From Patescibacteria group bacterium (lineage in GTDB: Bacteria; Patescibacteriota; JABMPQ01; JAQVVF01): a DNA stretch of 64,000 bases. The notes under the pieces are model-generated. The model was not told the origin of the DNA. It made no database searches and worked only from the letters and a program-made list of their open reading frames with translations. The position numbers and the translations under genes were made by a program. Below are positions 6,331 to 60,389 of this stretch, in pieces (position 1 is the first letter of the stretch; every line of letters starts with the position of its first letter). The stretch covers positions 577,511 to 641,510 of the forward strand of contig JBAZSC010000001.1 in NCBI GenBank assembly GCA_041662665.1, in the 5' to 3' direction.

Positions 6331-7482
6331 TTATCTAATATAATTATTAAAAACTTTTAAGTATTCATCAGACATTTTCTTCCAGGAAAAGTAATTTACT
6401 CTCTTCAAGCCACGCTTTGAAAAATCATTTCTTAAATTATTATCAGTAATTATTAATTTAATCTTCTCGGCTATTTCTTCAACTGAATTAGGATTGTTAA
6501 TTAAGACTGCTGCATCAGATGTAACTTCTGGTAGTGAAGAAATATTTGAAGCAACTACAGGAGTTCCAGTAGCCATTGATTCCAAAATAGGAATACCAAA
6601 ACCCTCGTATAGAGATGGCAAAACAAAAACTTTTGCGCCGGCTAATAATGGAGAGATGTCATCTTTAGAGACATAATCAGTGAATATTACATCGTTTTCT
6701 AACTTTTTTTCCATAATAGTTGCAAAAATATCTTGATAAAGCCAGCCTTTTTTGCCTGCGATTACAAGTTTTTCATTAATTTCATATTTTTTCTTCAGTA
6801 AATCAAAAGCTAATATTAAATTTCTGATATTTTTTCTTTTTTGAAGAGTGCCTACAAAAAGCATATATTCAGAGTCTATATTGTATTTTTGTTTTAACCT
6901 AATGATTTCAGACTTTTTTTGCAAGCAAAATTTATTTTTATCATAACCCAAATAAACGACATTAATCTTTTCGTGAGAAACATTGTAAAACTTGATTAAA
7001 TCATTTTTTGTGGCAATCGAATCTGCAAAAATTTTCTTAGATTTTAGGATAGTTAGTCTAGCAAAAAATTTAAAAATCAAACGGTCTTTAAAATTAAAAC
7101 ATTCCTGTTGAGTTAGAAAAGAAAGATCATGAATTACAGTAAACAAATTTGTTGTACAAAATAAAGGCCCCATCTGATTAGTTGATAAAAAAATATCCAA
7201 CTTATCTTTCGCAATCATGATTGGTAAAGACAAAACATTCCAAAATAAAAACATTAGAATGTCTCTTCCTACTGATGGTTTTAATTTACATATTCTAATT
7301 GAAAAATTATCAGGCAAAATAAAATCAGGAGCCAAATCATAATAAGAATACAAAACATACTTGTTATTGCGATCAAGTTTTAAATTTTCTATTAAATTAT
7401 AAATAAAAGTCTCAGTACCAGTTTTTTCAACTCTATGGATACCAGTAACATCTATTCCGATTTTTAATTGCTTGATTGCCAT
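6331..7482 (-). CDS. GT4 glycosyltransferase (tandem paralog 2)
   Basis: Carries EGFGIPILESMATGTPVV. It is colinear with 5211..6329. Confidence 0.85.
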   Translation of the reverse strand: MAIKQLKIGIDVTGIHRVEKTGTETFIYNLIENLKLDRNNKYVLYSYYDLAPDFILPDNFSIRICKLKPSVGRDILMFLFWNVLSLPIMIAKDKLDIFLSTNQMGPLFCTTNLFTVIHDLSFLTQQECFNFKDRLIFKFFARLTILKSKKIFADSIATKNDLIKFYNVSHEKINVVYLGYDKNKFCLQKKSEIIRLKQKYNIDSEYMLFVGTLQKRKNIRNLILAFDLLKKKYEINEKLVIAGKKGWLYQDIFATIMEKKLENDVIFTDYVSKDDISPLLAGAKVFVLPSLYEGFGIPILESMATGTPVVASNISSLPEVTSDAAVLINNPNSVEEIAEKIKLIITDNNLRNDFSKRGLKRVNYFSWKKMSDEYLKVFNNYIR

Positions 7483-7550
7483 TTATATGCTTAAATTAAA
7501 TAAATACTCAAATTTCACTGAACTAAATTAAGATAAATATATAAGCTTGT

Positions 7551-8702
7551 ATGAAAGTCGCAATAGTACGTGGAGCAACAATCAATAAATGGGAAATGCA
7601 AAATTACGAGCCTCTCGCAAAAAATTTTAGCGTAGAAGGAATTTATGCAAAGCCACAATTTTTTAAAACAGAAGATATAAAATTACCGCTTATGAATTTT
7701 TTTTCTCTGGCAAAACCAATTAATGATTCAAAAATTGGCCATTATTTTGGTGAATTCTTTTTTGGCAATATAGATTATCCTTTTTTTCTAACAAAATATT
7801 TATCAAAATTCGATATTATAAATACAATTGAAACATTTAATCCTTATACTATCCAATCGCTAGATTCAAAAAAGAAAAATCCTAAGCAGAAAGTTATTGT
7901 AACAGTATGGGAAAATATACCATTTAATAATGAATTTTTCAATAAACAACGATTAAACAAGAAAAAAACATTGAAAGAAGCGGATCATTTTATTGCAACC
8001 TCGATTCGTGCAAAAGAAGCATTGATACTAGAAGGCGCTGATCCAAAAAAAATTACAGTCTTGTATATGGGAATAGATCTAAACAGATTTAAACCTCAGT
8101 CAAAAGATACTGAAATGCTTAACAGACTAGGATTTAAAAAAAATGATTTTATTATTCTTTGCATCGGCAGATTGGTTTGGGAAAAGGGGATACAAGATGT
8201 CTTAAAATCGGTGGCAAGCATAATAAGAAAAAATTCAAAAGTTAAATTATTGATAGTCGGGGACGGTCCTATGTCTAAGAAAATTACTTCATTATCGAAA
8301 AAAATGAAAATTGATAAAAATATCAGATTAATTAAGAACTTTCCTTATCAAGATCTACCAAAAGTACATAACTTGGCTGATATCTTCGTCTTGCCAAGCA
8401 TTCCAGTAAAACAATGGCAGGAACAATTTGGTATGGTTTTTATAGAGAGCATGGCATGCGCCAAACCAGTCATTTCTACATTATCAGGATCAATTCCTGA
8501 AGTTATCGGGGATGCGGGAATCTTAGTATCACCAGCAGATAGCTATGAATTGTCTAAAAAAATAGATTTATTGTATAAGAACAAGAATTTAAGGATTGAG
8601 TTAGGTACTAAAGCAAGAAAAAGAGCATTAGATCTATTTGACTGTCAAAAAGCTGGAGAAAAAATAAGTCAAATATTCCAAAAAGTTTACAATCAAAATT
8701 AA
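7551..8702 (+). CDS. GT4 glycosyltransferase
   Basis: Carries EQFGMVFIESMACAKPVISTLSGSIPEV. Confidence 0.8.
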   Translation: MKVAIVRGATINKWEMQNYEPLAKNFSVEGIYAKPQFFKTEDIKLPLMNFFSLAKPINDSKIGHYFGEFFFGNIDYPFFLTKYLSKFDIINTIETFNPYTIQSLDSKKKNPKQKVIVTVWENIPFNNEFFNKQRLNKKKTLKEADHFIATSIRAKEALILEGADPKKITVLYMGIDLNRFKPQSKDTEMLNRLGFKKNDFIILCIGRLVWEKGIQDVLKSVASIIRKNSKVKLLIVGDGPMSKKITSLSKKMKIDKNIRLIKNFPYQDLPKVHNLADIFVLPSIPVKQWQEQFGMVFIESMACAKPVISTLSGSIPEVIGDAGILVSPADSYELSKKIDLLYKNKNLRIELGTKARKRALDLFDCQKAGEKISQIFQKVYNQN

Positions 8703-9853
8703 AGATTAGCAAAAATATCAATAGTTTTTAAAGCAGCTCTATCCCATGTAAATCTCTTAACATTTTCGTGGGATTTTTTAATTAATTCATTTCTAAGATC
8801 AGAATCGGATAGAATTTTTGTCATCGCATTTTTTATTGAATCAGTATCTAACGGATCAACTAAAATCGCTCCAATGTTAGCAATCTCTTTTAATGAAGAA
8901 TTGTCAGAGGTTACAACTGGACATCCAAATCGCATTGCATCAGCTACTGGCAAACCAAAACCTTCATAAAGAGAAGGAAAAACAAACAATGCAGCATTTC
9001 TATACAAATTAGGAAGATCTTTATTATCAATAAAACCTGCAAAAATAACGTTCTTTTTAAGATTTAATTTAGAAATAATACTATCTAGTTCAATTTTATC
9101 ATTTGTTGGAATCTTGCCAGCTAAAATTAATTTATAGTTGTTCTTAATATCTAAATCTAATTTATTGTAGGACTCAAGAATCATTTTAACGTTTTTTCTA
9201 AAATCATATCCGCCTAAATGAAGAATATATTTGCCTTCAATTCCGTATTTCTTAATATTTGATTTTTCTAATTTATCGAACCTAACATCTACTCCAGGAT
9301 ATGCAACAAAAACTTTATTTCTATCAAATTTAATTTTTGAAAGTAAATCATTTTTAGCACTTTCAGAAATTGCTAATATTGCATTAGAATCAGTAAAACT
9401 TTGCAAATAATTAAGATATTTTTTCTTCAACTTTTCAGATCTTAAATATTGCTTTTCAAAAATCAGCGGAATCATATCAAAAAATACTCTTATGACTTTA
9501 TAGTTTCCTTTCTGAATTCTAAAATCGCTATCACCAGTAGAAAAAGTCAACAAAATATCAACGTTATTTTTTTCGAGAGTTTTTTTAAGTAGATAGCTTT
9601 CAATAAACTGAAAATTTCTATAAAAATTAAAATAAATATTACTATCAATAAAAGATAATGGTTTTAAAATAGTATATTTTTCTAAATTAAGTATGCTAAA
9701 ATTTGAAAAATTATTATATCCAATTATAAAGAATTCATGATTTCCAGAATGCTTTTCAAGCAAAGATTTTGTCAAATTTTTTGCAACGTAACCAAAGCCT
9801 CTGTAAGAGTAGGGTAAAAACTGCGCGATTCTAACATCTAAAGCAATTTTCAT
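8699..9853 (-). CDS. GT4 glycosyltransferase
   Basis: Carries EGFGLPVADAMRFGCPVVTSDNSSLKE. Confidence 0.8.
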   Translation of the reverse strand: MKIALDVRIAQFLPYSYRGFGYVAKNLTKSLLEKHSGNHEFFIIGYNNFSNFSILNLEKYTILKPLSFIDSNIYFNFYRNFQFIESYLLKKTLEKNNVDILLTFSTGDSDFRIQKGNYKVIRVFFDMIPLIFEKQYLRSEKLKKKYLNYLQSFTDSNAILAISESAKNDLLSKIKFDRNKVFVAYPGVDVRFDKLEKSNIKKYGIEGKYILHLGGYDFRKNVKMILESYNKLDLDIKNNYKLILAGKIPTNDKIELDSIISKLNLKKNVIFAGFIDNKDLPNLYRNAALFVFPSLYEGFGLPVADAMRFGCPVVTSDNSSLKEIANIGAILVDPLDTDSIKNAMTKILSDSDLRNELIKKSHENVKRFTWDRAALKTIDIFANL

Positions 9854-11904: not shown

Positions 11905-12833
11905 CTAATTATTTTTAATCCACCAATTCAAACTATCTTTCAAAGTCTTATCGATATTATATTTGAATTTAAAACCAAGTTTTCTAAACTTTTTATTGTC
12001 TCCTTTTAAATCCATAATATCAACTGGCCTAAACTTATTTTTATCAATAACAACCTTAACTTTCTTTCCAGACATTTTAATCATTTTTGAAAGCAAGCTC
12101 TTAATTACATAAGACTTGCCGGAACAAACATTATAGGTCTCATGGCTTTTTCCTTTTTCAAGTAAAATTCGATAAGCAGCGACAACATCTCGAACATCGC
12201 TAAAATCACGTTTTGCATCTAAATTACCGACAAAAATTTCAGGTTCTGATTTTTTCAACTTTATCTCTGCTAATTGCTTAGCAAATTCTGGAATAACAAA
12301 AATAGGTTGTTGGCCTGGCCCAGTATGATTAAAACTGCGTGAAACAATCCAATCTAGATTTTTATAATTTAATAATAATTTTTCTTGCTCAACTCTTGAT
12401 TTTGCATAAGGACTTTCCGGATGCAATTCAAAAGATTCTTTAAGAGGCAATACTTTTGGCTTGCCATAAACTTCAGCAGAAGTAATAACTAATATTTTAG
12501 GATTAATATTTAATTTAACAATTGCATCGAGCAAATTCTTAGTGCCTTCAACATTTATTTTTCTACATAATTCCGGTTTGTCCCAACTATCTTTAACAGA
12601 ACTAAAACCAGCAAGATGAAAAACAAAATCTGGCTTAATTTTATTTATAACTTGAAAAACATTTTTTTTATCCAACAAATCGCATTTTAAAATCTTACTA
12701 GTTACTAGTTCCTTATTACTTGTTCCAGTTCTGTCTATTCCAAAAACCTCATATTTATATTTTAGCAATTCTTTTGCCAAATATGGTCCGACAAATCCTG
12801 ATATTCCTGTTATTAAAGCTTTCTTTTTCATCA

Positions 12834-12834
<1 letters not shown>
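11905..12834 (-). CDS. NAD-dependent epimerase/dehydratase (SDR), probably a GDP-4-keto-6-deoxymannose reductase (Rmd/fucose-synthase-like)
   Basis: Has a Rossmann GxxGxxG motif (ITGISGFVG). It is immediately downstream of gmd, and the specific function is inferred from that context. Confidence 0.65.
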
Positions 12835-15018
<2,184 letters not shown>

Positions 15019-15056: not shown

Positions 15057-15491
15057 CTACTTTCTACTTAAACTTATATAATTCTTTACAACTATTATTG
15101 TTACCCCAATTAAAATAATTCCAAAAATTTCAATCATTACACTCAGCAGATTTATTTTTACACCAATCTTATTTACAAAAAATATCACTAACGGCACCAA
15201 AGCCAAAGATAAAGCAATAGATAAAATAATTCTTTCAACCCAATCAATACCGTCATTTTTTTCGTCAGAACTATTTATCAGCGTCGTATCAGCGTTAGTA
15301 TCAGCGTCAAATCCGCTTCTACGAAAAAAGACATAGCTCCACACAAAACCAGGAATAAATAAAACATAAATAATTCCAAATACCAATCTAAAAGAATTTG
15401 CAAAACCAAGCCAAATAGAAGATATTAAAGCAATGATTGACAAAATTGCTAGAAATATTAATATAAATTTAATGATTTGTTTTGGATCCAT
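15057..15491 (-). CDS. small 4-TM membrane protein, a stand-alone paralog of the N-terminal module of 22307..24409
   Basis: Shares LFIPGFVWSYVFFRRSGFDADTNADTT and VERIILSIALS...KIGVKINLLS with the large protein. The NADTNAD loop is encoded by an ATCAGCGT repeat element. Confidence 0.6.
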   Translation of the reverse strand: MDPKQIIKFILIFLAILSIIALISSIWLGFANSFRLVFGIIYVLFIPGFVWSYVFFRRSGFDADTNADTTLINSSDEKNDGIDWVERIILSIALSLALVPLVIFFVNKIGVKINLLSVMIEIFGIILIGVTIIVVKNYISLSRK

Positions 15492-15641: not shown

Positions 15642-16445
15642 ATGACACATTTAGACAATCTAGAAGCAAAAAGTATTTACATTATTAGAGAAGCTTACAA
15701 GCAATATCATGACATTGCTCAACTTTGGTCAATTGGTAAAGATTCAACAACATTATTATGGCTTTGTCGAAAAGCATTTTATGGTCACTTACCATTTCCA
15801 GTTATGCATATTGATACTAGCTTTAAATTTAAAGAAATCTATCAATTCCGCGATGAATATACAAAAAAATGGAATTTAAAATTGATTGTTCATAGGAATG
15901 AAGAAGCCTTAAAAGCTGGAATGAATCCAAAGACAAAAGACAAACTTGAATGTTGTGGTCAATTAAAAACAGAAGCTCTAAAACAAGGAATTGCTCAATA
16001 CAAATTCAAAGCTTTATTATTAGGCATCAGACGCGATGAACATGGCATCAGAGCAAAAGAAAGAGTTTTTTCGCCACGAAATCAACAATTTCAATGGAAC
16101 TACAAAGATCAGCCAGCAGAATTATGGGATCAATATAAATCAAAACAAGCATCTGAACAACACATTCGCGTACATCCGCTTTTAGATTGGACAGAAAAAG
16201 ATATTTGGGCATATGTAGAAAGAGAAAATATTCCAATCGTTGATTTATATTTTGCAAAAAATGGCAAAAGATTCAGATCAATTGGCTGTGAAACATGTTG
16301 TGGTCCTGTTGATTCTAATGCATGCAATGTTCATCAAGTTGTTGAAGAATTAGAAACAACAAAGGTTGCTGAAAGATCAGGCAGAGCACAAGATAAAGAA
16401 AGTGTTTATGTGATGAATAAATTGAGAGCACTTGGTTATATGTAG
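15642..16445 (+). CDS. cysD: sulfate adenylyltransferase subunit 2
   Basis: Carries the PAPS-reductase-like motif SIGKDSTTLLWLCRKAF and is colinear with E. coli CysD. Confidence 0.9.
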   Translation: MTHLDNLEAKSIYIIREAYKQYHDIAQLWSIGKDSTTLLWLCRKAFYGHLPFPVMHIDTSFKFKEIYQFRDEYTKKWNLKLIVHRNEEALKAGMNPKTKDKLECCGQLKTEALKQGIAQYKFKALLLGIRRDEHGIRAKERVFSPRNQQFQWNYKDQPAELWDQYKSKQASEQHIRVHPLLDWTEKDIWAYVERENIPIVDLYFAKNGKRFRSIGCETCCGPVDSNACNVHQVVEELETTKVAERSGRAQDKESVYVMNKLRALGYM

Positions 16446-16455
16446 TCTTTATAAA

Positions 16456-16561
16456 GATACAAGAAACAAGATACAAACAATTTCCAATATCCAAATTAAA
16501 ATAACCAAACGCGACGAGTTTGAATATTGGTTATTGAAATTTGTTTGTATCTTGTATCTTG
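16456..16561 (+). other. long imperfect inverted repeat (arms of about 40 nt, loop GCGACGAG) between cysD and cysN
   Basis: caagaaacaagatacaaacaatttcc...ggttattgaaatttgtttgtatcttgtatcttg; the arms are near-perfect reverse complements. Confidence 0.6.
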
Positions 16562-16585
16562 ATTATTTATTTAATTAAAAAAAAT

Positions 16586-17827
16586 ATGTTAGAAAAGCAA
16601 TATTTGAAATTGGTCATAACTGGTCACGTTGATCATGGTAAATCAACTTTAATTGGTCGTTTGCTTTATGATACCGGTGCTGTTCCAGAAGACAAAGTTG
16701 CCGAAGTAAAGCAAGTTTGTGAATCTTTGGGCAGAGAAATGGAATTTGGTTTTATTACCGACCATTTTCAAGAAGAAAGAGAGCAAGGAATCACAATTGA
16801 TACAACTCAAATATTCTTCAAAACAGAAAAAAGAGAATATGTCATCATTGATGCTCCTGGTCACAAAGAATTTTTGAAAAACATGATTACTGGCGCTTCA
16901 CAAGCTGAAGCAGCTATTTTGATTGTTGATGCCAGCGAAGGCGTTCAAGAGCAAACAAAACGCCATGCTTATGTTTTAAGTATGCTTGGTATTCAACAAG
17001 TTATTGTTGCCGTAAATAAAATGGATTTAGTTGAATATAAATTAGATAGATTCAATGAAGTTGTCCAAGAATTAAAAACATTCTTATCTTCAATTAATTT
17101 AAAACCAACTTATATCATTCCAGTTTCAGCAAACAAGGGTGAAAACATTGCCAAAAGATCAACAAGCATGAAATGGTACAACGAAAAAACAATTTTGGAA
17201 GCTTTAGACAGCTTTACTCCGCTTAAAGATAAAGCAAATGAAACTTTACGTTTTCCAATTCAAGACGTTTACAAAGTAGGTGATAAGAGAGTTTTGGTTG
17301 GCAGGTTAGAATCAGGTTCAATCAAGCAAGGTGATAAAATAATCATGTTGCCATCAAATAATGAGTCAGAAGTCACATCCATTGAAGAATTTGGCAATCC
17401 AAATAAAAAAGAAGCTCATGCAGGCGAAAGCATCGGCATTACAATCAAAGATGATCCTTTTATTGAAAGAGGAGAAATAATTTGCAAAAAAGAAGAAGCA
17501 CCACAAGTTTCTGATACAATCAAAGCAAATGTTTTTTGGATGTCAAAACAAGGCTATAAAAAAGGCCAAAAAATAGTTTTCAGATCAGTTACTCAAGAAG
17601 TTCCAGGAACAATTTCAATAATTAATAAAAGAGTAAATTCATCAACATTAGAAACCTTAGAAGAAAATGCACCAGTAATTAATAATACTGAAGTTGGCGA
17701 AGTTACAATAAAATTAGAAAAACCAATTGTAATAGACGCTTTTTCCAAAGTCCAAGAAACAGGACGTTTCGTTCTTGCTGATCAATATGATACTGTGGCT
17801 GGAGGAATTATTCCAGATATTAAATAA
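16586..17827 (+). CDS. cysN: sulfate adenylyltransferase subunit 1 (GTPase); no APS-kinase domain
   Basis: Carries the G1 motif GHVDHGKSTL, DAPGH and NKMD. Start trimmed to the ATG at 16586. It is 414 aa, so not a CysNC fusion. Confidence 0.88.
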   Translation: MLEKQYLKLVITGHVDHGKSTLIGRLLYDTGAVPEDKVAEVKQVCESLGREMEFGFITDHFQEEREQGITIDTTQIFFKTEKREYVIIDAPGHKEFLKNMITGASQAEAAILIVDASEGVQEQTKRHAYVLSMLGIQQVIVAVNKMDLVEYKLDRFNEVVQELKTFLSSINLKPTYIIPVSANKGENIAKRSTSMKWYNEKTILEALDSFTPLKDKANETLRFPIQDVYKVGDKRVLVGRLESGSIKQGDKIIMLPSNNESEVTSIEEFGNPNKKEAHAGESIGITIKDDPFIERGEIICKKEEAPQVSDTIKANVFWMSKQGYKKGQKIVFRSVTQEVPGTISIINKRVNSSTLETLEENAPVINNTEVGEVTIKLEKPIVIDAFSKVQETGRFVLADQYDTVAGGIIPDIK

Positions 17828-17831
17828 TTTT

Positions 17832-17943
17832 ACGAGAATCTAGAATTTAGAATCTTGAATCTTGAATCGAATTTAGAATGTAGAATTCTAAATTCCAAAT
17901 TCTTCATTCATTCTAGAATCTAGATTCCAGATTCTAAATTCTT
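17832..17943 (+). repeat. tandem heptamer array (TWGAATY, about 10 units) followed by inverted copies (GATTCTA); a large palindromic structure
   Basis: gagaatc tagaatt tagaatc ttgaatc ttgaatc ... ttctagaatctagattccagattctaaattctt. Confidence 0.7.
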
Positions 17944-18657
17944 ATGTTTATAATTCTAGGTTACGATGGTTTGGAATACGATTTTGTCGAAAAAAACAAT
18001 TTTCCAAATCTCAAACAACAATCACATGGCATGACAGATTTGTCCGAATTTAAAGAACCAAGAACAATTGTTATTTGGTCATCTTTTATGGTTGGCAAAA
18101 ATTTAGAAGCAGACATCTTGAAGCAAGGCGCCAAAATGTGGGGTTCAAAAATCAAACCAGAAGATACTTTTTTAAAAAATTTCAAAAGCCATTACACAAT
18201 TGATGTTCCAGGATTTTCCTATGTCCTAAAACAACATGAAACAGAACGCGATTTGCTAAAAGGCTTTTTTGACAAAAAAAATGGAATTAAAGAATTTGAT
18301 AAATGCGCCTTTGACCATCACAAATTTGTTAAAGAACAATTTTTTAAAGAATTAAAGACTAATAAAGATTTAGTTTTTGGCTATTTTAATTTAGCTGATG
18401 TTGTTGGCCACTTGAGTTTCGGACAAGAATTAAAGATGAAATTAATCTATCAAGAATTAAATGATATTGCCAAAAAAGTCCAAACAGAACACCCAGATGC
18501 AACTATATTAATCATTTCTGATCATGGTATGCAAGCCATTGGCCAATTTGGCGATCATTCAAGACATGGTTTTTGGTCATTAAACAAGCAAATTAGTTTA
18601 AATAACCCAAAACCAACTGACTTCGCTAATTTGATATCTCAAAATTTTCAAATTTAA
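17944..18657 (+). CDS. short alkaline-phosphatase-superfamily (type I phosphodiesterase/nucleotide pyrophosphatase-like) protein, a truncated paralog of 31004..32575
   Basis: The N-terminus GYDGLEYDF is comparable to GLDGGTFRA. The SDHG metal-site motif is shared. It is only 237 aa versus 523. Confidence 0.5.
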   Translation: MFIILGYDGLEYDFVEKNNFPNLKQQSHGMTDLSEFKEPRTIVIWSSFMVGKNLEADILKQGAKMWGSKIKPEDTFLKNFKSHYTIDVPGFSYVLKQHETERDLLKGFFDKKNGIKEFDKCAFDHHKFVKEQFFKELKTNKDLVFGYFNLADVVGHLSFGQELKMKLIYQELNDIAKKVQTEHPDATILIISDHGMQAIGQFGDHSRHGFWSLNKQISLNNPKPTDFANLISQNFQI

Positions 18658-18725: not shown

Positions 18726-20495
18726 ATGAAAAAATTTGTTATTTTTTGTATAACGATCTTTACTTTATTCCAAACAAGTAATTTTGTTTTTGCTGAATCA
18801 ATTATTGTCACTGGTATAAAACAAAATGAGTTACAGCCAATCAGAACTTATAGTTTGAATACAGGTAATAAAATTAAAGAATTTTATCCATATGGAAAAT
18901 ATTTTTCTGGTGGCATTAATATTGCTGTAGGTGATCTAACTGGTGATAATAAAGATGAAATCGTTGTCTCACCAAAAAGCTCATGGCAACCAGAAATTAG
19001 AGTCTACACAAAAAGAGGAAAACTCCTTTCAAAGTTTTTAGCTTATGGAAAAAGTTTCAAAAACGGCATCGATATTGCAGTTGGCGATACAAACAATGAT
19101 GGCAAAAAAGAAATTATTACTGCTCCTGGCATACATAGCGATCCGATATTAAGCATTTTTAATTATAAAGGTAAAAAAATAATGCCAGATATTTTGGCAT
19201 TTCCAACAAATTTCAATAGAGGATTAAGTGTTGCTACAGGAGATATAAATTCTGACAGCAAAGACGAAATTATTGTTACAACTAATTCTGGCCAAGCGCC
19301 ATATGTAGAAATTTATAATGACCAAGCAAAAAAAATCGGACAATTTCTAATCTTTGACCAAGAATTCAGAGGCGGAGTAAATATTGCAGCAGGAGATATG
19401 AATAACGACAGTTACGATGAAATTGCTGCTTGCCAAGCATCACAAGGCACAGCATGCAAAATCTTTCGTTTTGGTTTCAAAACAAATGCTGTAAAAGAAT
19501 TGAGTGTTGTCAAATATCCAACGAATATTATTCCAAATTTCGGCAATGTTAATTCAGACAATAATAAAGAATTATTAATCTCTGATAGCAAAAAACCAAT
19601 TTTAAGTAGTTATAGCTTGGCTTTAAATTCAAGAACAACATTAAAATTAGCAAATGAAAACGTTCATTCAGAAATAGCTTTTATTCCTGATAATACTTTC
19701 AATTTTGTTGTCTATGGTGATACTCAACAAGTAGATCGTACAAATCATTTAAGAATAATCGAAGGAATTAACAACCAAAAATACGATTTTGCCTTTCATG
19801 TTGGCGATTTTACCCAAGATGATTCTGTTAATGAATGGGAAGTGTTTCAAAGACTGGAAAGCTCTATCATCAATAAAACACCCAAAAAAGGATTAAGCTC
19901 TGCTTTTTTTCCTGTCATTGGAAATCACGAATATGCATTAGATAATTATTTTACTCTTTTTAATACTTATCCAAAAAATCAATCATATTATTCATTTGAT
20001 TATAAAAATGCCCATTTCGTAGTACTAGATACCGAAACTGATTTTTCTATGGGCAGTACTCAATATGATTGGTTAAATTCTGATTTAGCCCTAACAAACA
20101 AAACCTGGAAAATTGTTTTATTGCATCGTCCTCCATACAATTCAAATTATAAATACAATTATTTTCATCCCAATGTAGATGTTAAAAATGATATTGTTCC
20201 AATATTAGAGCAATATAAAGTTAATATAGTCTTTGGCGGACATTCTCATATTTATGAACGGACTTATCCGATTTTTCAAGATCAAGCAAATTTTGTTAAT
20301 GGAATCACATATGTTATAACTGCTGTCGCTGATTCAAATCCAATTATGCCAAATTGGTGGACAGCAAAAAGCAAATCAGAATCATCATTTGTTAAAATTC
20401 AATTACGTGATAACATACTGAAAGGATACGCATATAACGAAATGCAAGGCTCGATAGACAAATTCGCAATCAATTCTAACTTATCAAATTTATAA
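18726..20495 (+). CDS. secreted protein with N-terminal FG-GAP/VCBS-like repeats and a C-terminal calcineurin-like metallophosphatase (purple acid phosphatase-like)
   Basis: Has a signal peptide and repeated GDxNxDxxDEI motifs (GDLTGDNKDEIVV, GDTNNDGKKEII, GDINSDSKDEII, GDMNNDSYDEIA). The metallophosphatase motifs are GDTQQ, GNHEY, LLHRPPY, GHSHIYER. Confidence 0.8.
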   Translation: MKKFVIFCITIFTLFQTSNFVFAESIIVTGIKQNELQPIRTYSLNTGNKIKEFYPYGKYFSGGINIAVGDLTGDNKDEIVVSPKSSWQPEIRVYTKRGKLLSKFLAYGKSFKNGIDIAVGDTNNDGKKEIITAPGIHSDPILSIFNYKGKKIMPDILAFPTNFNRGLSVATGDINSDSKDEIIVTTNSGQAPYVEIYNDQAKKIGQFLIFDQEFRGGVNIAAGDMNNDSYDEIAACQASQGTACKIFRFGFKTNAVKELSVVKYPTNIIPNFGNVNSDNNKELLISDSKKPILSSYSLALNSRTTLKLANENVHSEIAFIPDNTFNFVVYGDTQQVDRTNHLRIIEGINNQKYDFAFHVGDFTQDDSVNEWEVFQRLESSIINKTPKKGLSSAFFPVIGNHEYALDNYFTLFNTYPKNQSYYSFDYKNAHFVVLDTETDFSMGSTQYDWLNSDLALTNKTWKIVLLHRPPYNSNYKYNYFHPNVDVKNDIVPILEQYKVNIVFGGHSHIYERTYPIFQDQANFVNGITYVITAVADSNPIMPNWWTAKSKSESSFVKIQLRDNILKGYAYNEMQGSIDKFAINSNLSNL

Positions 20496-20542: not shown

Positions 20543-20707
20543 ATGCCAAGAAAGCTAAACAAAATAATGTGTGATTGTACAAAATGCGATTGCGGATGCA
20601 ATTGCGAACATGATGAAGAAGAAAAAAAAGATGATCAAAAAGAATATACGAATGATGAAGAAAAAATGATCAAGGACAAATTAAAAGGTCTAGGTTATCT
20701 TGACTAA
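20543..20707 (+). CDS. small Cys-rich protein (54 aa) missing from the ORF track: MPRKLNKIMCDCTKCDCGCNCEHDEEEKKDDQKEYTNDEEKMIKDKLKGLGYLD
   Basis: An ATG at 20543 reaches TAA at 20705-20707. It has a CxCxxCxCxCxC cluster and an acidic/Lys tail, and is metallothionein-like. Confidence 0.4.
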   Translation: MPRKLNKIMCDCTKCDCGCNCEHDEEEKKDDQKEYTNDEEKMIKDKLKGLGYLD

Positions 20708-20714
20708 AAAATCT

Positions 20715-20790
20715 CAAATTTACACAAATTTAGCACGAATTACACAAATATTAGTTCGTGAAATTTGTGTTTAATTTGTGTAAATTAGCG
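20715..20790 (+). other. complex palindrome (aatttacacaaat ... atttgtgtaaatt) downstream of the small Cys-rich ORF and upstream of the flippase
   Basis: Inverted repeats of TTACACAAAT were read directly. It may be a terminator or an operator. Confidence 0.5.
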
Positions 20791-20795
20791 ATTCT

Positions 20796-22306: not shown

Positions 22307-24409
22307 CTATAAATTATCTTTATTGATTTTGAATATTATAATTGATCCTAATTTGTCTGAGTCAAAAAACTCAGCTTTTTTTTCTAAAAAATCTGTATTT
22401 AATAATTTTTCCTGATATTTCCAGTCGATGTCAGCTTTTGTACTAAAAGATCCAAGTACTTTTTTGCCAGCATAGACAAATTCAATATTATTTTTTTTAT
22501 AAAATGATCTCGATAATTCAGAATTTGGATCAAAGATCCAAGGACATTCGCCTTTATAATCATTGCAATCGCTACCGTCGATTACAGCTCTGCCAGTCAA
22601 TAAATTAATATAGCTACCCCAACTTCTCATTGCTAATGTCTTTGGATAAGATAAAATAATAGCATTTTGGTCAGTATTATTTCTTATCCAAGATAAAGCT
22701 TTTGCATCAGAATCTTGCAATCTAACTTTTTGATTATATTCTGTTGAATCTTTAATGAAATTTAATGTACTAAATGACAATATTAATATTAAAACAATCT
22801 TGAGAGCTAAATAGCTTTTATTTCTCAAAAATAATCCAATTGTCAAGAAAAAATAAGCAATCATAACTATCAAAGGCAAAGCTAAATCCAAAGCAAATCT
22901 ATTAGGTAAAATAAAAAATGAAAAACGAGTCCCAATAAACAAAGCGATAGCCCAGGAAATTATAATAATTTTTTCAGCTTTCTGTAGAGACTTAAAAAAG
23001 AAAAAGGGGATTGATATCAAACCAAGGCTAAATATAAAAACACCTAAATGATTATCATACGCTTTCCAAGATACAGCTAATTCTGGTATTTCCGAAGTTA
23101 CGCTCACATCGTTAATTTGGTTATTTACAGACATTGCACTTTGGAATTGAGCAATTATACTATTTAGAAAAATTTGAGAATAATATTCATAAGTCAAAGG
23201 CAATATTAGGACAAACAAAGAAAATATAAGAATTAAGAAATTTTTAAAATAAATATTCTCAAAAATTTTTAAATGTTTTTTAAAAGAATCAAATCTCGAT
23301 AAAAATTTAAGAATAAGTAATAAAAATGCTATCAAAAACAAAGTCAAAATCATATATGTACTCGATAGTGAATGAGTCAAAAACACTCCACCAAAGAATA
23401 AAAAACATAATATTATTTTTTTATAATTAATTTCTTTGCTCAAAAATAGATCCTTCAGAAATGCCAAGCCAAACAAGAATAAGCACAATCCAGCAAAAAG
23501 ATTTAGATAAGTACCAGTTGAATAAGAATTACCAGGCTGTCTTGATATAAAAACTAGCAAAACCAAAGAAATAATTGCTATCAACTCATTTTTAAATAAT
23601 TTCCTCACCAAAAAATAAAAAGCAAGATAAGAAATAATAAAAATAAATGGCACGAAAAATATTGTTGTTGTTACAACGTCTTGACCAGTAAAAAACGTTT
23701 CTAATGCTAATAGAGTGTGAAATAATGGGGGATCTAAAGATCCTTCCCAAGCTTTTGTAAAACCTTGTTCAATAATTCCTTTTGCTTCAGTCATGTGTCT
23801 TGTTGGATCATCACCTGGAGGAACAATGTAGTTATGATGGAAAATTCCGTAATAAAAATGGAAAGCTAGCAAAATAATCAGCAAAACCAAAATTATCGCT
23901 CCGAGATTATTTTTAACAAATTGCCAAAAATTAACTTTTTTTGATGCTATTATCGCAGAACTAAAAAAATTCTTATTAAAACCGTTTCTCAAAGAATAGA
24001 TTGATTGAGAAACAATAAATTCTTTGACAAATAAAATTATCAAGCCAATCATAATCAACAACGATATTTCAATCGCAGAGCTTAACAATGTAATTTTCAC
24101 ACCAAGCTTACTTGATAGAAACACAATTAAAGGCGACATTACAAAGGATAATCCAAACGACAAAATTATTCTATCCGCCAATCTTATAGAACCATTTTTC
24201 GGCGTTCTATCAGCGTTAGTATCAGCGTTAAATCTGCCTCTAAGCAACAAAAAGCCCCAAACAAAACCTGGCAAAAATAAAGCAAACACACTTCCTAAAA
24301 CAAATCTTAAAGATTCAAGTGCTGTAAATTTAAAAGTCAAAACAAAAAAAGCAACCATAGCAGATGCAATAAAAAGAAAAACGCCAAAAATAACTTTTTT
24401 ATTACTCAT
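22307..24409 (-). CDS. GT-C membrane glycosyltransferase, candidate STT3/AglB-like OST paralog, with an extra N-terminal 4-TM module
   Basis: The N-terminal 140 aa are paralogous to 15057..15491. The core has GDDPTRH and LDPPLFH, like 2706..4265. The C-terminus has SWGSYINLLTGRAVIDG, which is WWDYG...TGR...D-like, and matches the C-terminal domain of 2706..4265. Confidence 0.55.
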   Translation of the reverse strand: MSNKKVIFGVFLFIASAMVAFFVLTFKFTALESLRFVLGSVFALFLPGFVWGFLLLRGRFNADTNADRTPKNGSIRLADRIILSFGLSFVMSPLIVFLSSKLGVKITLLSSAIEISLLIMIGLIILFVKEFIVSQSIYSLRNGFNKNFFSSAIIASKKVNFWQFVKNNLGAIILVLLIILLAFHFYYGIFHHNYIVPPGDDPTRHMTEAKGIIEQGFTKAWEGSLDPPLFHTLLALETFFTGQDVVTTTIFFVPFIFIISYLAFYFLVRKLFKNELIAIISLVLLVFISRQPGNSYSTGTYLNLFAGLCLFLFGLAFLKDLFLSKEINYKKIILCFLFFGGVFLTHSLSSTYMILTLFLIAFLLLILKFLSRFDSFKKHLKIFENIYFKNFLILIFSLFVLILPLTYEYYSQIFLNSIIAQFQSAMSVNNQINDVSVTSEIPELAVSWKAYDNHLGVFIFSLGLISIPFFFFKSLQKAEKIIIISWAIALFIGTRFSFFILPNRFALDLALPLIVMIAYFFLTIGLFLRNKSYLALKIVLILILSFSTLNFIKDSTEYNQKVRLQDSDAKALSWIRNNTDQNAIILSYPKTLAMRSWGSYINLLTGRAVIDGSDCNDYKGECPWIFDPNSELSRSFYKKNNIEFVYAGKKVLGSFSTKADIDWKYQEKLLNTDFLEKKAEFFDSDKLGSIIIFKINKDNL

Positions 24410-28463: not shown

Positions 28464-28530
28464 AGTTTAGAAATTTAAGCATTAAAAATTTAATAGAAAT
28501 TAGAAATTGAAAATTAGAAATTCGCTATAT
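28464..28530 (+). repeat. tandem TWGAAAT heptamer array
   Basis: tagagtt tagaaat ... tagaaat tgaaaat tagaaat. Confidence 0.6.
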
Positions 28531-29592
28531 ATGCTAAAATTTTTCTTCAAATATTTAATTAAAGATAAAATCAGACTAACAACTTTCAACAAATTAGTTA
28601 TTTTAAAATTGTTAAAACATTCCCTCAAAAAATCAGAAATGCCAGAATCATATCTCTATGAATATAATGCCAAAACAATTCAAAAGACACTTGACTTCAT
28701 GCACAAAAAACAAGATACAATTGATTCAATGTGGTTGCAAAGAGGCTTAATCTGCGAAAATAAAAATTTTAAAGACACATCAAAAATCGCCAATGGTTCA
28801 ACAACCACACTCAAACAAACTAATGGCAAAAATTATTTAACTGATGAAGATTTGAGTTTTATCGAAAAAAATGATCCAGAAAAAGCAAAGATAATTAGAG
28901 AAACACACCTGCAAATGGAGGATTTCTATAAAAAAGCACTGTGCAATAAAAACTTGATTTATCATCCTGAAGAATTAGCAAAAATAGGCCAAATCTTAAA
29001 TCAAGGCTTAGCTTTTAAAAAAGATTTTACTTTTCATCGTGGAGAAATTAATAATTCCTTAAAATTATATTTCAATCGAATAGGGGAGTTCAAAAAAATA
29101 GATAAAACTGGAATTTTTGTTTTTGATGAAAAAATTGATTTATTAGTAAAAGGTTCGGAATTTATTTTTAATTTAAAAACTGCCAAAGCAATCGAGAAAA
29201 AAACTGGAGGAAAATTTTATGCTTTAAATCCTTTTGCCAAAAAATATATTGCTCCAAATGTTATCAGAGTTTTAAATACTGGAGTTTATGATTTGCCACA
29301 TCTTGGCCATGCTTCAAAAATAAAGAATCTAAAACAAGCAATTGCAAAAAATGGCAAATTAATCATTGGTTTAACCAGCAATAAAAATGTCCGAGGCATA
29401 AAAAACAAACAAGTTGTATTTTTAGCAAAAGACCGTAAAACAATGCTTGAATCATTAAAATATCCAGATAAGATAATTCTTGAACCAGGCAATAGCAAAA
29501 TCTTCAAAGAATTCTATAATTACGCTCAATTACCTTTTTATACAAAAACAATTTATAATTTTAAATCCATATTTAACAGAACGAACAATTGA
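28531..29592 (+). CDS. two-domain protein: N-terminal domain of unknown function plus a C-terminal HxGH cytidylyltransferase-like domain (TagD/RfaE-dII-like)
   Basis: GVYDLPHLGHAS is the HxGH nucleotidyltransferase motif. Start trimmed to the ATG at 28531; the track start is a TTG inside the repeat array. Confidence 0.6.
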   Translation: MLKFFFKYLIKDKIRLTTFNKLVILKLLKHSLKKSEMPESYLYEYNAKTIQKTLDFMHKKQDTIDSMWLQRGLICENKNFKDTSKIANGSTTTLKQTNGKNYLTDEDLSFIEKNDPEKAKIIRETHLQMEDFYKKALCNKNLIYHPEELAKIGQILNQGLAFKKDFTFHRGEINNSLKLYFNRIGEFKKIDKTGIFVFDEKIDLLVKGSEFIFNLKTAKAIEKKTGGKFYALNPFAKKYIAPNVIRVLNTGVYDLPHLGHASKIKNLKQAIAKNGKLIIGLTSNKNVRGIKNKQVVFLAKDRKTMLESLKYPDKIILEPGNSKIFKEFYNYAQLPFYTKTIYNFKSIFNRTNN

Positions 29593-29600
29593 TAATAAGA

Positions 29601-29639
29601 TTCTGCTTTTTCTGCGTTAGCTTCTGCGTTCTTCTGCGT
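29601..29639 (+). repeat. 4 x TTCTGCGT element (periods 9-12-10)
   Basis: ttctgcttt ttctgcgttagc ttctgcgttc ttctgcgtc. Confidence 0.85.
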
Positions 29640-29650
29640 CAAATTAAAGT

Positions 29651-30445
29651 ATGCCCACATTAACAGAATTAAAAAGAATCTGCCGTAAAAAAAATTACCA
29701 TAACTATTGGTCAAAGATTTTTTCTCGCCATATTTCCATTTATTTCACTTGGTTTTTTTGTCATACACCAATTACTCCAAATCAATTAACTTTTATTCAA
29801 ATAATTTTAGCTTGGCTAGCAGGATTATCATTAATTATCTGGCAATGGAACGGAATTATCGCCTGGATAATTTTAATGCAATTATCATTTATCTTTGATC
29901 TAGTTGATGGAGAAGTTGCGAGATATAAGAAAAAATCATCTTTATTTGGTGTAATCTTAGATTCATTTGGCCATGTCTTAATTAATCCAGCAGTATATTG
30001 GAGTCTTGCAATTTTTGTCTATTATCAAACATTTGATGTCTGGATAATCTACTTAACAATTATTTTATCAATCTTTTTAATTTCTCCATCAAAACACGCT
30101 TTAATGCGCGGAATTTTATTTTTAACAACCAAAAAAGACAATCCAATCTATAATTACGAAAATCTAAGCAAGCAGTTTAAACAAGAATATCTTCCTCCAA
30201 AACAAAGGAATAGCTCTCTAAAACAAGTTGAAAAAATATTGAAAACAATCTCCGAATTTCCAAATGACATGAATATTTTCTGCATTTTATTAATCTTAAC
30301 TCTAATTTTTCATAATACATTATTCACAACAATTGGCTTGGTTTTCTTTTCTGGATTAATAATCATAAAAGAATTTTACTTTTTATATCAAATCAAAAAG
30401 AAGAATTTAATTGAAAAAGAATACCTCAAGATTTATCAAAAATAA
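29651..30445 (+). CDS. CDP-alcohol phosphatidyltransferase family membrane protein
   Basis: DLVDGEVARYKKKSSLFGVILDSFGH matches DG-x2-AR-x8-G-x3-D. Confidence 0.7.
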   Translation: MPTLTELKRICRKKNYHNYWSKIFSRHISIYFTWFFCHTPITPNQLTFIQIILAWLAGLSLIIWQWNGIIAWIILMQLSFIFDLVDGEVARYKKKSSLFGVILDSFGHVLINPAVYWSLAIFVYYQTFDVWIIYLTIILSIFLISPSKHALMRGILFLTTKKDNPIYNYENLSKQFKQEYLPPKQRNSSLKQVEKILKTISEFPNDMNIFCILLILTLIFHNTLFTTIGLVFFSGLIIIKEFYFLYQIKKKNLIEKEYLKIYQK

Positions 30446-30975: not shown

Positions 30976-31007
30976 CTTTATAAACTTTATAACTTTAAGA
31001 ACTTTAT
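30974..31007 (+). repeat. 4 x AACTTTAT element (periods 9-8-9)
   Basis: gactttat aa aactttat aactttaa g aactttat. Confidence 0.8.
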
Positions 31008-32575
31008 AGACTGTTAGTCATCACATTTTTAACAACATTAACTGGAATATTTACAAAATCCTTATAAATTTCACTTGCCGGCTTCCCATCCATGTATTCC
31101 GGTACTTGCAACCCCATATAATTCAAAACAGTTGGCGTAATATCCAAAATACTGATTGGTTTAATTTCCTTGCCAGCCAAGATATTTGGACCTAAAGACA
31201 TAAATATTCCATCTTGATCATGATATGAATTTGTATGCGATGTCGTTTCCACAAAAAGTTTATCATCAAATCTTGCAACAGCCAATCTTTTTTCACCATT
31301 AACTTTAAAAATAATGTCTGGCGCTTCAGCAACATAATTTCCATGATATTGCTCTTCACATGACATTACTTCTGTAAAAACTTTATCGCCATTTGGATCA
31401 GTAACCAACTTTAATTTTTCAATAATTTCTGATCTTAATTTTTTATATTCTTCTTTACTGACAGTTCCATTATTCTCTCGACCTATCAAATTAATATTTA
31501 CGCCCCAAGTTGATTTTGCGCCTAATTGAGCATAAGCAGTTGTATTTTTCCAATCAATCGTCTTTGTTGATTGCGGAATATTTTCTCTTATAATATTTTT
31601 AATTGATCTTGGAACAATATTCCTAAATTTATCAATAAACTTATTTTTAAATAATTTCTGTCTATCAAATTTAATTAAGTGAAAAAATCTGCGAAGTAGG
31701 GAAGTATTGCCTTGTTTTTCATGAACTTGTCTCCAGCCTTTTGCAACAACATCATTAATTTCTGATTTTTTGTATTGCATATAACCATTCTGATTCAACC
31801 AAGCCATGATATTAAATGTTTGATCATAATCATTAAAGCCATGATCAGACATAACAAATAATCCAGTTTCATTATCCATTAATTTCAAAATCTTGCCCAT
31901 CAAATCATCAAGAGTTTTATAAGTCCTAATAACCTTGTCTTCTTCATGCCAAAAATCATGCCCACAAATATCTGAACAACGAAACACAATCATAGAAAAA
32001 TCCCATTTTTCAGAAGTATAATATTTTTTCCAAATTTCATATCTTGCTTTATCAACTGAAACCATTGCATCAAATCTTTCTTCTCCGCCTTTATGTCGTA
32101 AATTTAATTCCATTGAATCAATAACATAATTTTGTTTTCGAAGCTCTTGTTCAAAAGACAATGGTTCAGCATATCTCTGAGTTGACAAAGATAATAGTCC
32201 GCCAACTAATTTGCCATTAATGCTTTCTGGAGGATAAGTCATTGGCACATTCCAAACCAAGCATCTCTTGCCATTTTCTGACAATATTTTCCATAATGAT
32301 TTAACTTTTACATCAGAAAAAGTATGAATTTTTCGATCTTCAATATTGAATTTATGCGTTGATAAAAAATGAAAGATTCCATGTTTGCCAGGATTCACGC
32401 CAGTATAAAAAGAAGGCCAAGCTGGCACAGTCAAAAAAGGAATTGTACTTTTCAAAATTCCATGACTTCCTTTTTCTAAAATATGTTTGAATGTTGGCAA
32501 TAAACCTTGATCACTATATTTTTTTATAGCTCTAAAAGTTCCGCCATCTAAACCCACGATTAACGCTTTTTTCAT
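31004..32575 (-). CDS. alkaline-phosphatase-superfamily type I phosphodiesterase/nucleotide pyrophosphatase-like enzyme
   Basis: The N-terminus is ALIVGLDGGTF...VPAWPSFYTG, and it carries SDHG. Confidence 0.7.
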   Translation of the reverse strand: MKKALIVGLDGGTFRAIKKYSDQGLLPTFKHILEKGSHGILKSTIPFLTVPAWPSFYTGVNPGKHGIFHFLSTHKFNIEDRKIHTFSDVKVKSLWKILSENGKRCLVWNVPMTYPPESINGKLVGGLLSLSTQRYAEPLSFEQELRKQNYVIDSMELNLRHKGGEERFDAMVSVDKARYEIWKKYYTSEKWDFSMIVFRCSDICGHDFWHEEDKVIRTYKTLDDLMGKILKLMDNETGLFVMSDHGFNDYDQTFNIMAWLNQNGYMQYKKSEINDVVAKGWRQVHEKQGNTSLLRRFFHLIKFDRQKLFKNKFIDKFRNIVPRSIKNIIRENIPQSTKTIDWKNTTAYAQLGAKSTWGVNINLIGRENNGTVSKEEYKKLRSEIIEKLKLVTDPNGDKVFTEVMSCEEQYHGNYVAEAPDIIFKVNGEKRLAVARFDDKLFVETTSHTNSYHDQDGIFMSLGPNILAGKEIKPISILDITPTVLNYMGLQVPEYMDGKPASEIYKDFVNIPVNVVKNVMTNSL

Positions 32576-32599: not shown

Positions 32600-32716
32600 T
32601 AATTTAGTCATAATATAATACGAATTTACGAATTATGCAAATGTTGCGAATATACAAATACGACGATTTGCATATTTGTATCATTTGCATTTATTTGTAT
32701 ATTCGTATTATATTTT
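32600..32716 (+). repeat. palindromic region built from ATTYGYAT-type 8-mers; the 3' 28-mer is identical to the pyrG leader
   Basis: atgcaaatgttgcgaatatacaaatacgacgatttgcatatttgtatcatttgcatttatttgtatattcgtattatattttca. Confidence 0.7.
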
Positions 32717-37859: not shown

Positions 37860-37947
37860 TTCAGCTTTCGTATCAGCGTTAGAATCAGTGCGTAATCAAC
37901 TTCTACATATCAGCGTTCGAAATCAGCGCCGAATCAGCTTCTACATA
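37860..37947 (+). repeat. two consecutive ATCAGCGT-family elements (4 plus 3 units), each ending in atcaRcttctaca
   Basis: ttcagctttcgt atcagcgttaga atcagtgcgta atcaacttctaca t atcagcgttcgaa atcagcgccga atcagcttctaca. Confidence 0.85.
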
Positions 37948-38028
37948 AATTTAACACAAAAATACTATTTTGTGAATTTATTAAAAATGCTAAACTACAT
38001 TAAACAACAAAATTATATTAAAAACAAA

Positions 38029-57520: not shown

Positions 57521-57556
57521 AATGTGCAAATATTAAATTTAACAATTATCAGTTAC

Positions 57557-57593
57557 GTGTTAACTGTTAATTGTTAACTGTTAATTGTTAACT
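57557..57593 (+). repeat. tandem TTAACTG/TTAATTG array upstream of ctpA
   Basis: gttaactgttaattgttaactgttaattgttaac. Confidence 0.6.
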
Positions 57594-57595
57594 TC

Positions 57596-58822: not shown

Positions 58823-58831
58823 CTTTTCATT

Positions 58832-59026
58832 ATGCCATGCCTCAAATGCGGTGAATGCTGCAAAACATTATATTGGTCAGATAGGATAAAAATTTCCTTA
58901 AAAACAAAAAAAATCATGATCTCTAAAAAATGCGGATTTTTAGACAAAAATAATTTATGTACCATACACGCTATAAGGCCAGATGTATGCAAAAATTGGC
59001 GCTGTGGCGCATCAATACAAAAATAA
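58832..59026 (+). CDS. YkgJ-family cysteine-cluster protein (UPF0153)
   Basis: Carries CLKCGECCK...CGFLDKNNLCTIHAIRPDVCKNWRC. Confidence 0.7.
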   Translation: MPCLKCGECCKTLYWSDRIKISLKTKKIMISKKCGFLDKNNLCTIHAIRPDVCKNWRCGASIQK

Positions 59027-59038
59027 TTCAATTCAAAA

Positions 59039-59245
59039 ATGATAAAAAACTTAATAAAAAAGCATCAAAATATTCATTCAATATTAGTTGGCATGGCCTT
59101 AATCTTCTTTTGGCGAGGTATTTGGATTCTCACGGAAATGTATCTTTTTCCGAATAATCACACCTTAAGCGCAATAATTTGTATTGTAGTAGGGCTTTTT
59201 ATCCTTTACATAGATGACCGCAAATTTAAAGAATTAAATATCTAA
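59039..59245 (+). CDS. small 2-TM membrane protein
   Basis: A hydrophobic ORF; weak evidence. Confidence 0.3.
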   Translation: MIKNLIKKHQNIHSILVGMALIFFWRGIWILTEMYLFPNNHTLSAIICIVVGLFILYIDDRKFKELNI

Positions 59246-59248
59246 AAT

Positions 59249-59479: not shown

Positions 59480-59494
59480 GTATATTATAATTTA

Positions 59495-60329: not shown

Positions 60330-60389
60330 ATTCAAATAATTTGCATATTCGCTAGATTTGCATTATTTGTATATTCGTATTATATTTTC
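60330..60389 (+). repeat. ATTYGYAT-family element forming the pyrG leader (shares a 28-mer with 32689..32716)
   Basis: atttgcatattcgctagatttgcattatttgtatattcgtattatattttc, followed by the ATG. Confidence 0.7.

Follow-up and report, generated by a model that had tools for sequence, protein, structure and literature searches.

A cysD-cysN pair linked to a minimal alkaline-phosphatase-superfamily gene in a patescibacterial glycan locus: a candidate module for glycan sulfation

CysD/CysN pairs that have been put to a second purpose, the sulfation of secreted or surface molecules, are found among the genes for those molecules in rhizobia (NodP/NodQ with NodH) and in Xanthomonas (RaxP/RaxQ with RaxST). 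NodQ and RaxQ carry an adenosine 5'-phosphosulfate (APS) kinase domain, and NodH and RaxST are sulfotransferases that depend on 3'-phosphoadenosine 5'-phosphosulfate (PAPS). To our knowledge, all well-studied glycan O-sulfation proceeds by way of PAPS, with an APS kinase and a PAPS-dependent sulfotransferase. Here we analyse a cysD-cysN pair in a stretch of 64,000 nucleotides from a Patescibacteria group bacterium (contig JBAZSC010000001.1, positions 577,511 to 641,510 of the forward strand; hereafter the window). The pair is followed by a gene for a minimal protein of the alkaline phosphatase (AP) superfamily, which we call miniAP.

Reviews of polysaccharide sulfotransferases recognise only PAPS-dependent and aryl-sulfate-dependent classes (PMC11625862). 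In Haloferax, a surface glycan receives sulfate on a lipid-linked sugar, and the genes responsible lie in a glycosylation cluster (PMC3892788). Surveys of DPANN archaea and of the candidate phyla radiation (CPR) read sulfate adenylyltransferase as assimilatory or dissimilatory (PMC8091004, PMC6286981, PMC12239599). We found no literature on a module of cysDN with an AP-superfamily gene, or on a sulfation pathway in CPR or DPANN, in a search of incomplete coverage that leaves a prior description possible. The new element is a dedicated sulfate-activation module whose uncharacterised AP-fold partner, miniAP, occupies the genetic position that belongs to APS kinase in classical systems (CysC, or the C-terminal domain of NodQ).

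A conserved cysD-cysN-miniAP module in glycan loci

The first gene, cysD (15642..16445, plus strand), encodes a short form, 267 amino acids (aa) long, of the small, catalytic PP-loop subunit of ATP sulfurylase. The protein scored 354 bits against the NCBIfam CysD model NF003587 (cutoff 195) and 155 bits against PF01507 (PAPS_reduct), contains the PP-loop SIGKDS, and has a full-length identity of 40% to E. coli CysD. It fell short of two narrower CysD models, with 270 bits against TIGR02039 (cutoff 397) and 275 bits against NF009214 (cutoff 413), and these missed cutoffs place it in a divergent short subfamily. Its homologues in DPANN archaea, Methanosarcinales and CPR are 72-94% identical to it. 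The second gene, cysN (16586..17827, plus strand), encodes the GTPase subunit, 413 aa long; its open reading frame (ORF) opens at a TTG at 16541, and homologues support the ATG at 16586 as the start. CysN scored 382 bits against TIGR02034 (cutoff 336), carries the GTPase motifs GHVDHGKST, DAPGH and NKMD (G1, G3 and G4), and is 35% identical to its E. coli counterpart. No APS-kinase domain was found on it, and its match to PRK05506 covered model positions 18-430 of 632 with 409 bits (cutoff 715). By homology only, CysD and CysN would together make APS from sulfate, ATP and GTP. A preliminary description of this DNA had named the CysD/CysN pair, had set it between glf and genes for AP-superfamily and propeller proteins, and had described a CysN of 414 aa that is not fused to CysC. 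The profile scores, motifs and identities to E. coli confirm the pair, and the placement was correct. CysN is indeed unfused, as the PRK05506 match stops at position 430, but it is 413 aa long.

The third gene, miniAP (17944..18657, plus strand), encodes a protein of 237 aa that resembles nucleotide pyrophosphatases/phosphodiesterases (NPPs); an identical protein is on record as WC663_03045. The sequence barely reached the PF01663 profile (25.1 bits, cutoff 23) and gave no sign of a signal peptide or a membrane segment. Residues D8, T41, D152, H156, D193, H194 and H205 were invariant among 30 aligned homologues and by their pattern in the sequence form a predicted complete two-metal site with a threonine nucleophile, as in the NPP-like branch of the superfamily. 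Basic residues were conserved at R40, R102, K106, K130 and K164. The AlphaFold2 model reached a pLDDT of 97 and a pTM of 0.93, and its nearest folds in the Protein Data Bank were ENPP4, ENPP5, ENPP6, Xac NPP and the catalytic domain of MCR-1, at template modelling (TM) scores of ~0.5 and 12-14% identity. Foldseek gave a probability of 1.0 for the matches to ENPP4, ENPP5, ENPP6 and Xac NPP, and there was no solved structure among the sequence relatives of miniAP. A profile search of 1.84 billion representatives delimited a family of 476 clusters at E <= 1e-10, all of at most 382 aa and none fused to another domain. We regard miniAP as a probably cytoplasmic protein that appears catalytically complete by its residues and whose chemistry we infer.

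A scan for the miniAP family in one genome per species yielded 77 loci, to which we refer below by numbers beginning with L. Most came from DPANN archaea (Micr-, Aenigm-, Woese-, Iain-, Alti-, Undin- and Nanoarchaeota), Bathyarchaeia, Thermoproteota, Methanosarcinales and Thermoplasmata, while the bacterial carriers were few: Patescibacteria, Omnitrophota, Hydrothermota and Brocadiaceae. Linkage was scored in the 41 loci in which miniAP was full-length and flanked on either side by 2.5 kb of sequence or more. Both cysD and cysN lay within 3 kb of miniAP in 37 of these, and one of the two did so in the remaining 4. The stop and start codons of module genes often overlapped. Gene order differed by lineage, being cysD-cysN-miniAP in DPANN and CPR and cysD-miniAP-cysN in Bathyarchaeia; adjacency that is kept despite a rearranged order is a classical signature of a functional unit. 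Between CPR and Bathyarchaeia, identities were 43-50% for miniAP, 55-62% for CysD and 34-40% for CysN, and we rate the conservation of the three proteins as comparable. Across the two domains of life, cysDN has no other partner as tightly linked as miniAP. The preliminary guess that the AP-superfamily ORF at 17944..18657 takes part in the work of cysDN is strongly borne out by this linkage.

The surroundings of the module point to glycan synthesis. In the window it is housed in a glycan locus of ~60 kb, and the window, at ~30% G+C, consists almost wholly of glycan-biosynthesis genes: many GT4 and GT2 glycosyltransferases, three Wzx-type flippases, a Wzy-like polymerase, glf, GDP-mannose dehydratase/epimerase, PMT_2-type transferases and a cytidylyltransferase/CDP-alcohol transferase pair. 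The flanking glf gene, for UDP-galactopyranose mutase, lies at 13903..15018 on the minus strand (TIGR00031, 371 bits) and is kept beside the cassette in the close relatives L002, L003 and L005. The order cysD-cysN-miniAP within a neighbourhood of glf, epimerase and flippase genes is retained in L002, L003, L005 and L006, and the cassette stands among glf, epimerase, flippase and glycosyltransferase genes in L002, L005, L011 and L012. Across species we counted epimerase, flippase, glycosyltransferase, NDP-sugar and aminotransferase genes in the 37 cassette-bearing loci of at least 12 kb; at least one such gene cluster was present in 31 of them, and three or more were present in 26. The preliminary description had read the pair as serving sulfation of the glycan built by this locus. 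That reading gains support from the recurrent glycan context and from the lack of nearby genes for APS reduction or phosphorylation, and on contextual grounds sulfate activation that serves a glycan rather than cysteine synthesis is the best-supported reading.

All ORFs of the 77 loci were also clustered into a census of neighbours. The commonest was a small protein of ~74 aa encoded upstream of cysD (42 loci), followed by NAD-dependent epimerases/dehydratases (26), Wzx flippases (23), GT4 glycosyltransferases (18), TauE-family anion permeases (15), DUF2061 proteins (15), NDP-sugar pyrophosphorylases (14), UDP-glucose dehydrogenases (12) and sulfatase-family proteins (11). Aminotransferases and acetyltransferases were recurrent as well. 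A TauE-family permease is encoded immediately upstream of cysD in the relative L005, and a PBP_like_2 binding protein after miniAP in L009.

Genes that would carry APS further along the known routes were sought in the same material. The Pfam scan of the window, which took in all ORFs of at least 90 aa not nested in a larger ORF, returned no APS_kinase, no Sulfotransfer family, no CysH other than CysD and no sulfite reductase. When E. coli CysC, CysH, CysI and CysJ were used as tblastn queries against the window and 90 loci (1.21 Mb), the window gave nothing but cysD, and the whole target held zero homologues of CysC, CysI and CysJ; its sole CysH-like gene was in a Bathyarchaeia locus (L062), 9 kb from the module. 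Searches for the P-loop and DGDxxR motifs of a hidden APS kinase turned up none in the window or the loci, and the PAPS-loop (PSB-loop) motif of sulfotransferases was absent from the ORFs of the 77 species loci. Both the Pfam scan and tblastn uphold the preliminary statement that the window lacks cysC, cysH and cysIJ, and no complete assimilatory sulfate-reduction locus was found in the window or the related loci.

Several observations on the module proteins and their neighbours stand apart from these counts. The C-terminus of CysD (...KLRALGYM, encoded at 16421..16445) ends in a tail of the form L[RK]xLGY[LMIF]-COOH that several different proteins have in common. We found it on 60 of 64 CysD cluster members, on 19 of 50 of the small ~74-aa proteins, on 3 of 12 sulfatase-family neighbours and on a 545-aa AP-family protein (example sites are 2027..2251 in L033, and 6433..7677 and 3293..4930 in L035). 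This shared tail may be a common docking peptide. The ~74-aa protein itself, encoded upstream of cysD in many archaeal loci, has no copy in the window. The small DUF2061 membrane protein is encoded within or beside the module in L016, L018, L022, L031-L033, L039, L043, L054-L056, L064, L068 and L075, and also upstream of cysD in Calderihabitans (L090); the window has none. In L010, from Planctomycetota or Brocadiaceae, the neighbours of a miniAP homologue (8063..8803) are four genes of the sulfatase family, methyltransferase genes and genes for two radical-SAM enzymes, one of them similar to an anaerobic sulfatase-maturating enzyme. This setting, too, has to do with sulfate esters, but it differs in kind.

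Proposed function and rival explanations

We propose that CysDN makes APS and that the substrates of miniAP are what CysDN directly produces. In its most likely role, miniAP would accept the sulfuryl group of APS on Thr41 and hand it to a common acceptor, a ping-pong group transfer of the kind performed by the AP-superfamily transferases EptA/MCR-1 and LtaS; alternatively, miniAP could pull the unfavourable equilibrium of ATP sulfurylase. Either way, the module would sulfate the cell-surface glycan of the surrounding locus with neither PAPS nor a canonical sulfotransferase encoded nearby. That a conserved cysD-cysN-miniAP module feeds glycan sulfation, with miniAP acting on CysDN products, is a reading we hold to be evenly balanced between right and wrong. 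Sulfate as the substrate, APS as the substrate of miniAP and the glycan as the final acceptor are all points that we infer. More tentatively, and with the balance tipped against it, miniAP might found a new class of enzyme: an AP-fold, PAPS-independent transferase in complex with CysDN, which would either transfer the sulfuryl group of APS, by way of a sulfo-Thr41 intermediate, to a common sugar or nucleotide-sugar acceptor or phosphorylate APS at the expense of the inorganic pyrophosphate (PPi) that CysD releases, as a non-homologous replacement of APS kinase.

A number of points weigh against the module as a route to glycan sulfation. We know of no AP-superfamily enzyme that uses APS as a sulfuryl donor, and we found no APS-dependent sulfotransferase in the literature searched. 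Both miniAP and this clade of CysDN are known from sequences and models rather than from biochemistry. No sulfate transporter is encoded in the window, recognisable glycan genes are missing from 6 of the 37 long loci, and cysDN is absent from the 11.8-kb L010 contig that bears a miniAP. An APS kinase and a PAPS-dependent sulfotransferase may also be encoded elsewhere in the genome. Such an arrangement would make the module part of an ordinary PAPS route, with miniAP as an accessory PPi hydrolase or as a CysQ-like phosphatase of APS or of 3'-phosphoadenosine 5'-phosphate (PAP). We think this explanation rather unlikely, though it stays a strong rival because miniAP is about as highly conserved across phyla as CysD: such conservation points to a substrate that is small and universal and not to a glycan acceptor particular to one lineage, and a housekeeping hydrolase of PPi or PAP would account for it no less well than a sulfotransferase would. 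The nearest folds are those of NPPs, which cleave pyrophosphate-type bonds, the conserved basic residues would suit a polyanion, and in some eukaryotes a pyrophosphatase is fused to PAPS synthase. Thr-nucleophile enzymes of the NPP type, however, are typically diesterases or transferases and not hydrolases of PPi or monoesters. The gene content also speaks against an accessory role, since cysC is normally fused or adjacent to cysN and neither cysC nor a sulfotransferase motif was found within 10 kb of any of the 77 triads. PF03567 sulfotransferases have been reported in some DPANN genomes (PMC11625862), which counts for the PAPS route and against direct use of APS by the module.

The published view of archaeal CysDN as assimilatory (PMC6286981, PMC8091004) would have the pair supply an APS reductase and a sulfite reductase for cysteine synthesis, its placement in a glycan locus being incidental. 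A route through APS reductase requires no CysC, and sulfate-type transporters adjoin the module in some loci; the CysH-like gene of L062 also fits. Yet that gene is the only one of its kind in the 77 loci, a sulfite reductase occurs in none of them, and in lineage after unrelated lineage the triad stands among glycan genes, with synteny to glf and a flippase in four related genomes. Patescibacteria are generally without amino-acid biosynthesis. The extreme metabolic limitation described for such organisms (PMC12239599) likewise tells against assimilation in a patescibacterial host. Plain assimilation is unlikely for the Patescibacteria genome in these contexts, and as a general account of the module we judge it to be distinctly improbable. 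It is more improbable still that the anion activated by the CysD/CysN-like pair is not sulfate but a different one, to be moved by the AP-fold enzyme to the glycan. AP-superfamily transferases do normally move phospho-groups, CysD misses the cutoffs of TIGR02039 and NF009214, and the TauE and PBP_like_2 transporters are not specific for sulfate. Promiscuity of oxyanion transporters has been noted (PMC6286981). Against a different anion stand the full-length identities to E. coli CysD and CysN, scores above the cutoffs of NF003587 and TIGR02034, and a neighbourhood that suggests no alternative substrate and in which sulfatase-family proteins recur.

If miniAP does use APS directly, the module would represent a second, APS-based route to sulfation, widespread in DPANN and Bathyarchaeia and present in some CPR and Firmicutes. 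Such a route would explain why no sensible downstream pathway accompanies the sulfate adenylyltransferase reported from DPANN and CPR genomes (e.g. PMC8091004). It would also suggest that many ultra-small episymbionts have sulfated surface glycans, in a setting where the charge of the surface may influence attachment to the host, and the module would offer a PAPS-free biocatalyst. Its proteins are small and, as predicted, soluble, and Calderihabitans maritimus is a cultured carrier of a related cysD-cysN-COG3379 arrangement.

Spacer palindromes and neighbouring genes

The spacer between cysD and cysN contains a long imperfect palindrome (16451..16570, plus strand) with 44-nt arms at 16451-16494 and 16527-16570 (inverted repeat I1). 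Its predicted folding energy was -38.2 kcal/mol, with z-scores of -6.1 to -7.3 against shuffled sequences, and a T-rich stretch follows it. A second strong hairpin occupies the cysN-miniAP spacer (17835..17943, plus strand; inverted repeats I4, I12, I20 and I25; -36.1 kcal/mol, z = -7.0 to -7.9), and significant structure is predicted in eight or more further spacers of the window. Strong hairpins in the window were restricted to spacers between co-directional or convergent genes and never lay between divergent ones, which suggests a role as elements of transcript 3' ends. An Rfam search of the whole window gave no match, so these hairpins are not known RNAs; nor is a 672-nt spacer at 58823..59494, which has no ORF of at least 90 aa and a moderately significant predicted structure (z = -3.1).

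The preliminary description had placed a hairpin at 16456..16561 and had suggested that it regulates the stoichiometry of the two subunits. The structure is real, with somewhat wider limits, but a conserved regulator of stoichiometry does not fit what was found in L012, L014 and the archaea. An element homologous to the one between cysD and cysN (85% mean column identity) sits in the cysN-miniAP spacer of L012, whose own cysD-cysN spacer holds a copy of a different window element, that at 32606..32715; partial copies of the latter occur in the window at 48672..48713 and 60339..60387. The cysD-cysN spacers of L011, L013 and L014 have a different structure or none, that of L014 being 52 nt long and unstructured, and the archaeal genes directly adjoin or overlap one another. 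An attenuator dedicated to fixing the CysD:CysN ratio could account for a very stable structure between two co-directional genes with a T-rich stretch behind it, and for the confinement of strong hairpins to co-directional and convergent spacers. The displaced copy in L012, the unstructured or missing spacers elsewhere and the similar structures in so many other spacers of the window all argue against it, as does the failure to match a terminator consensus: a simple scan for intrinsic terminators did not call the cysD-cysN hairpin. We consider such an attenuator highly doubtful. The hairpins are dispersed palindromic elements that colonise spacers, and they may affect expression locally. Families of long AT-rich palindromes also occur in window spacers at 20701..20795 and 57531..57596, and in L012 at 8506..8568 and 12780..12870. 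Copies are common to the genome of the window and its relative but lie in different spacers, a dispersed behaviour of the REP or MITE type.

Further along the window lies a larger AP-superfamily gene, bigAP (31004..32575, minus strand), whose product of 523 aa belongs to COG3379/PF01663 (129.7 bits against PF01663). It is a distant paralogue of miniAP and a candidate glycan-modifying transferase, and we assign it to the module only tentatively. In 12 of the 77 loci, a homologue of bigAP is encoded no more than 10 kb from the triad. In Doudnabacteria (L089) and in the cultured Firmicute Calderihabitans maritimus (L090), a homologue of 430-485 aa (COG3379/PF01663) directly follows cysN; there miniAP is missing, the short CysD is 71-74% identical, and the locus is again one for polysaccharide. 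We rejected a strict coupling of bigAP to cysDN, as two distant homologues are encoded in glycan loci where the nearest 10 kb contain no cysDN. The involvement of 31004..32575 that the preliminary description had suggested is thus favoured by the position of the family after cysN in L089 and L090 and disfavoured by its occurrence in glycan loci that lack the pair.

Directly downstream of miniAP, at 18726..20495, the window encodes a protein with an FG-GAP propeller and a Metallophos domain. It has a large paralogue at 37888..39849, in which the FG-GAP and calcineurin-like metallophosphoesterase domains come in the opposite order. The gene at 18726..20495 follows miniAP in the window, L002 and L012 and is outside the wider module. 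Near bigAP, at 28507..30445, a cytidylyltransferase-like gene adjoins a gene for a CDP-alcohol phosphatidyltransferase, a pair that suggests decoration of the same glycan, or of a lipid, with a CDP-activated phospho-alcohol. Two DUF1616 membrane proteins flank the cassette (15057..15491 and 22307..24409), the second of which also matches DUF6541. DUF1616 is, we take it, an archaeal family, and its presence here, with a CysD that is 72-78% identical to archaeal sequences, suggests that part of the glycan locus was transferred between DPANN-like archaea and Patescibacteria. The module looks to be horizontally shared and, in this genome, to have been acquired from DPANN-like archaea together with the archaeal-type DUF1616 proteins.

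Comparison with known systems

The pair in the window resembles E. coli CysDNC in being an ATP sulfurylase of the heterodimer type, with a PP-loop CysD and an EF-Tu-like GTPase CysN encoded by adjacent, co-directional genes. It differs in what follows. E. coli has cysC after cysN and also has cysJIH, whereas here an AP gene comes after cysN and neither cysC nor cysHIJ is nearby; the CysD of the window is also ~35 aa shorter, and its context is a glycan locus. Unlike NodPQ and RaxPQ, which likewise serve surface or secreted molecules, the window has a CysN with no kinase domain and encodes no PAPS-loop sulfotransferase nearby. Sulfated N-glycans are known in archaea, as in the low-salt tetrasaccharide of Haloferax volcanii, with Agl7, and in Halobacterium salinarum, where the donor pathway is undefined. 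As for the third protein, miniAP shares with EptA/MCR-1, LtaS and the NPPs an alpha/beta core, a predicted two-metal site and a threonine nucleophile. Unlike those enzymes, which are extracytoplasmic, miniAP is predicted to be cytoplasmic, and it is ~60% of the size of the smallest NPPs.

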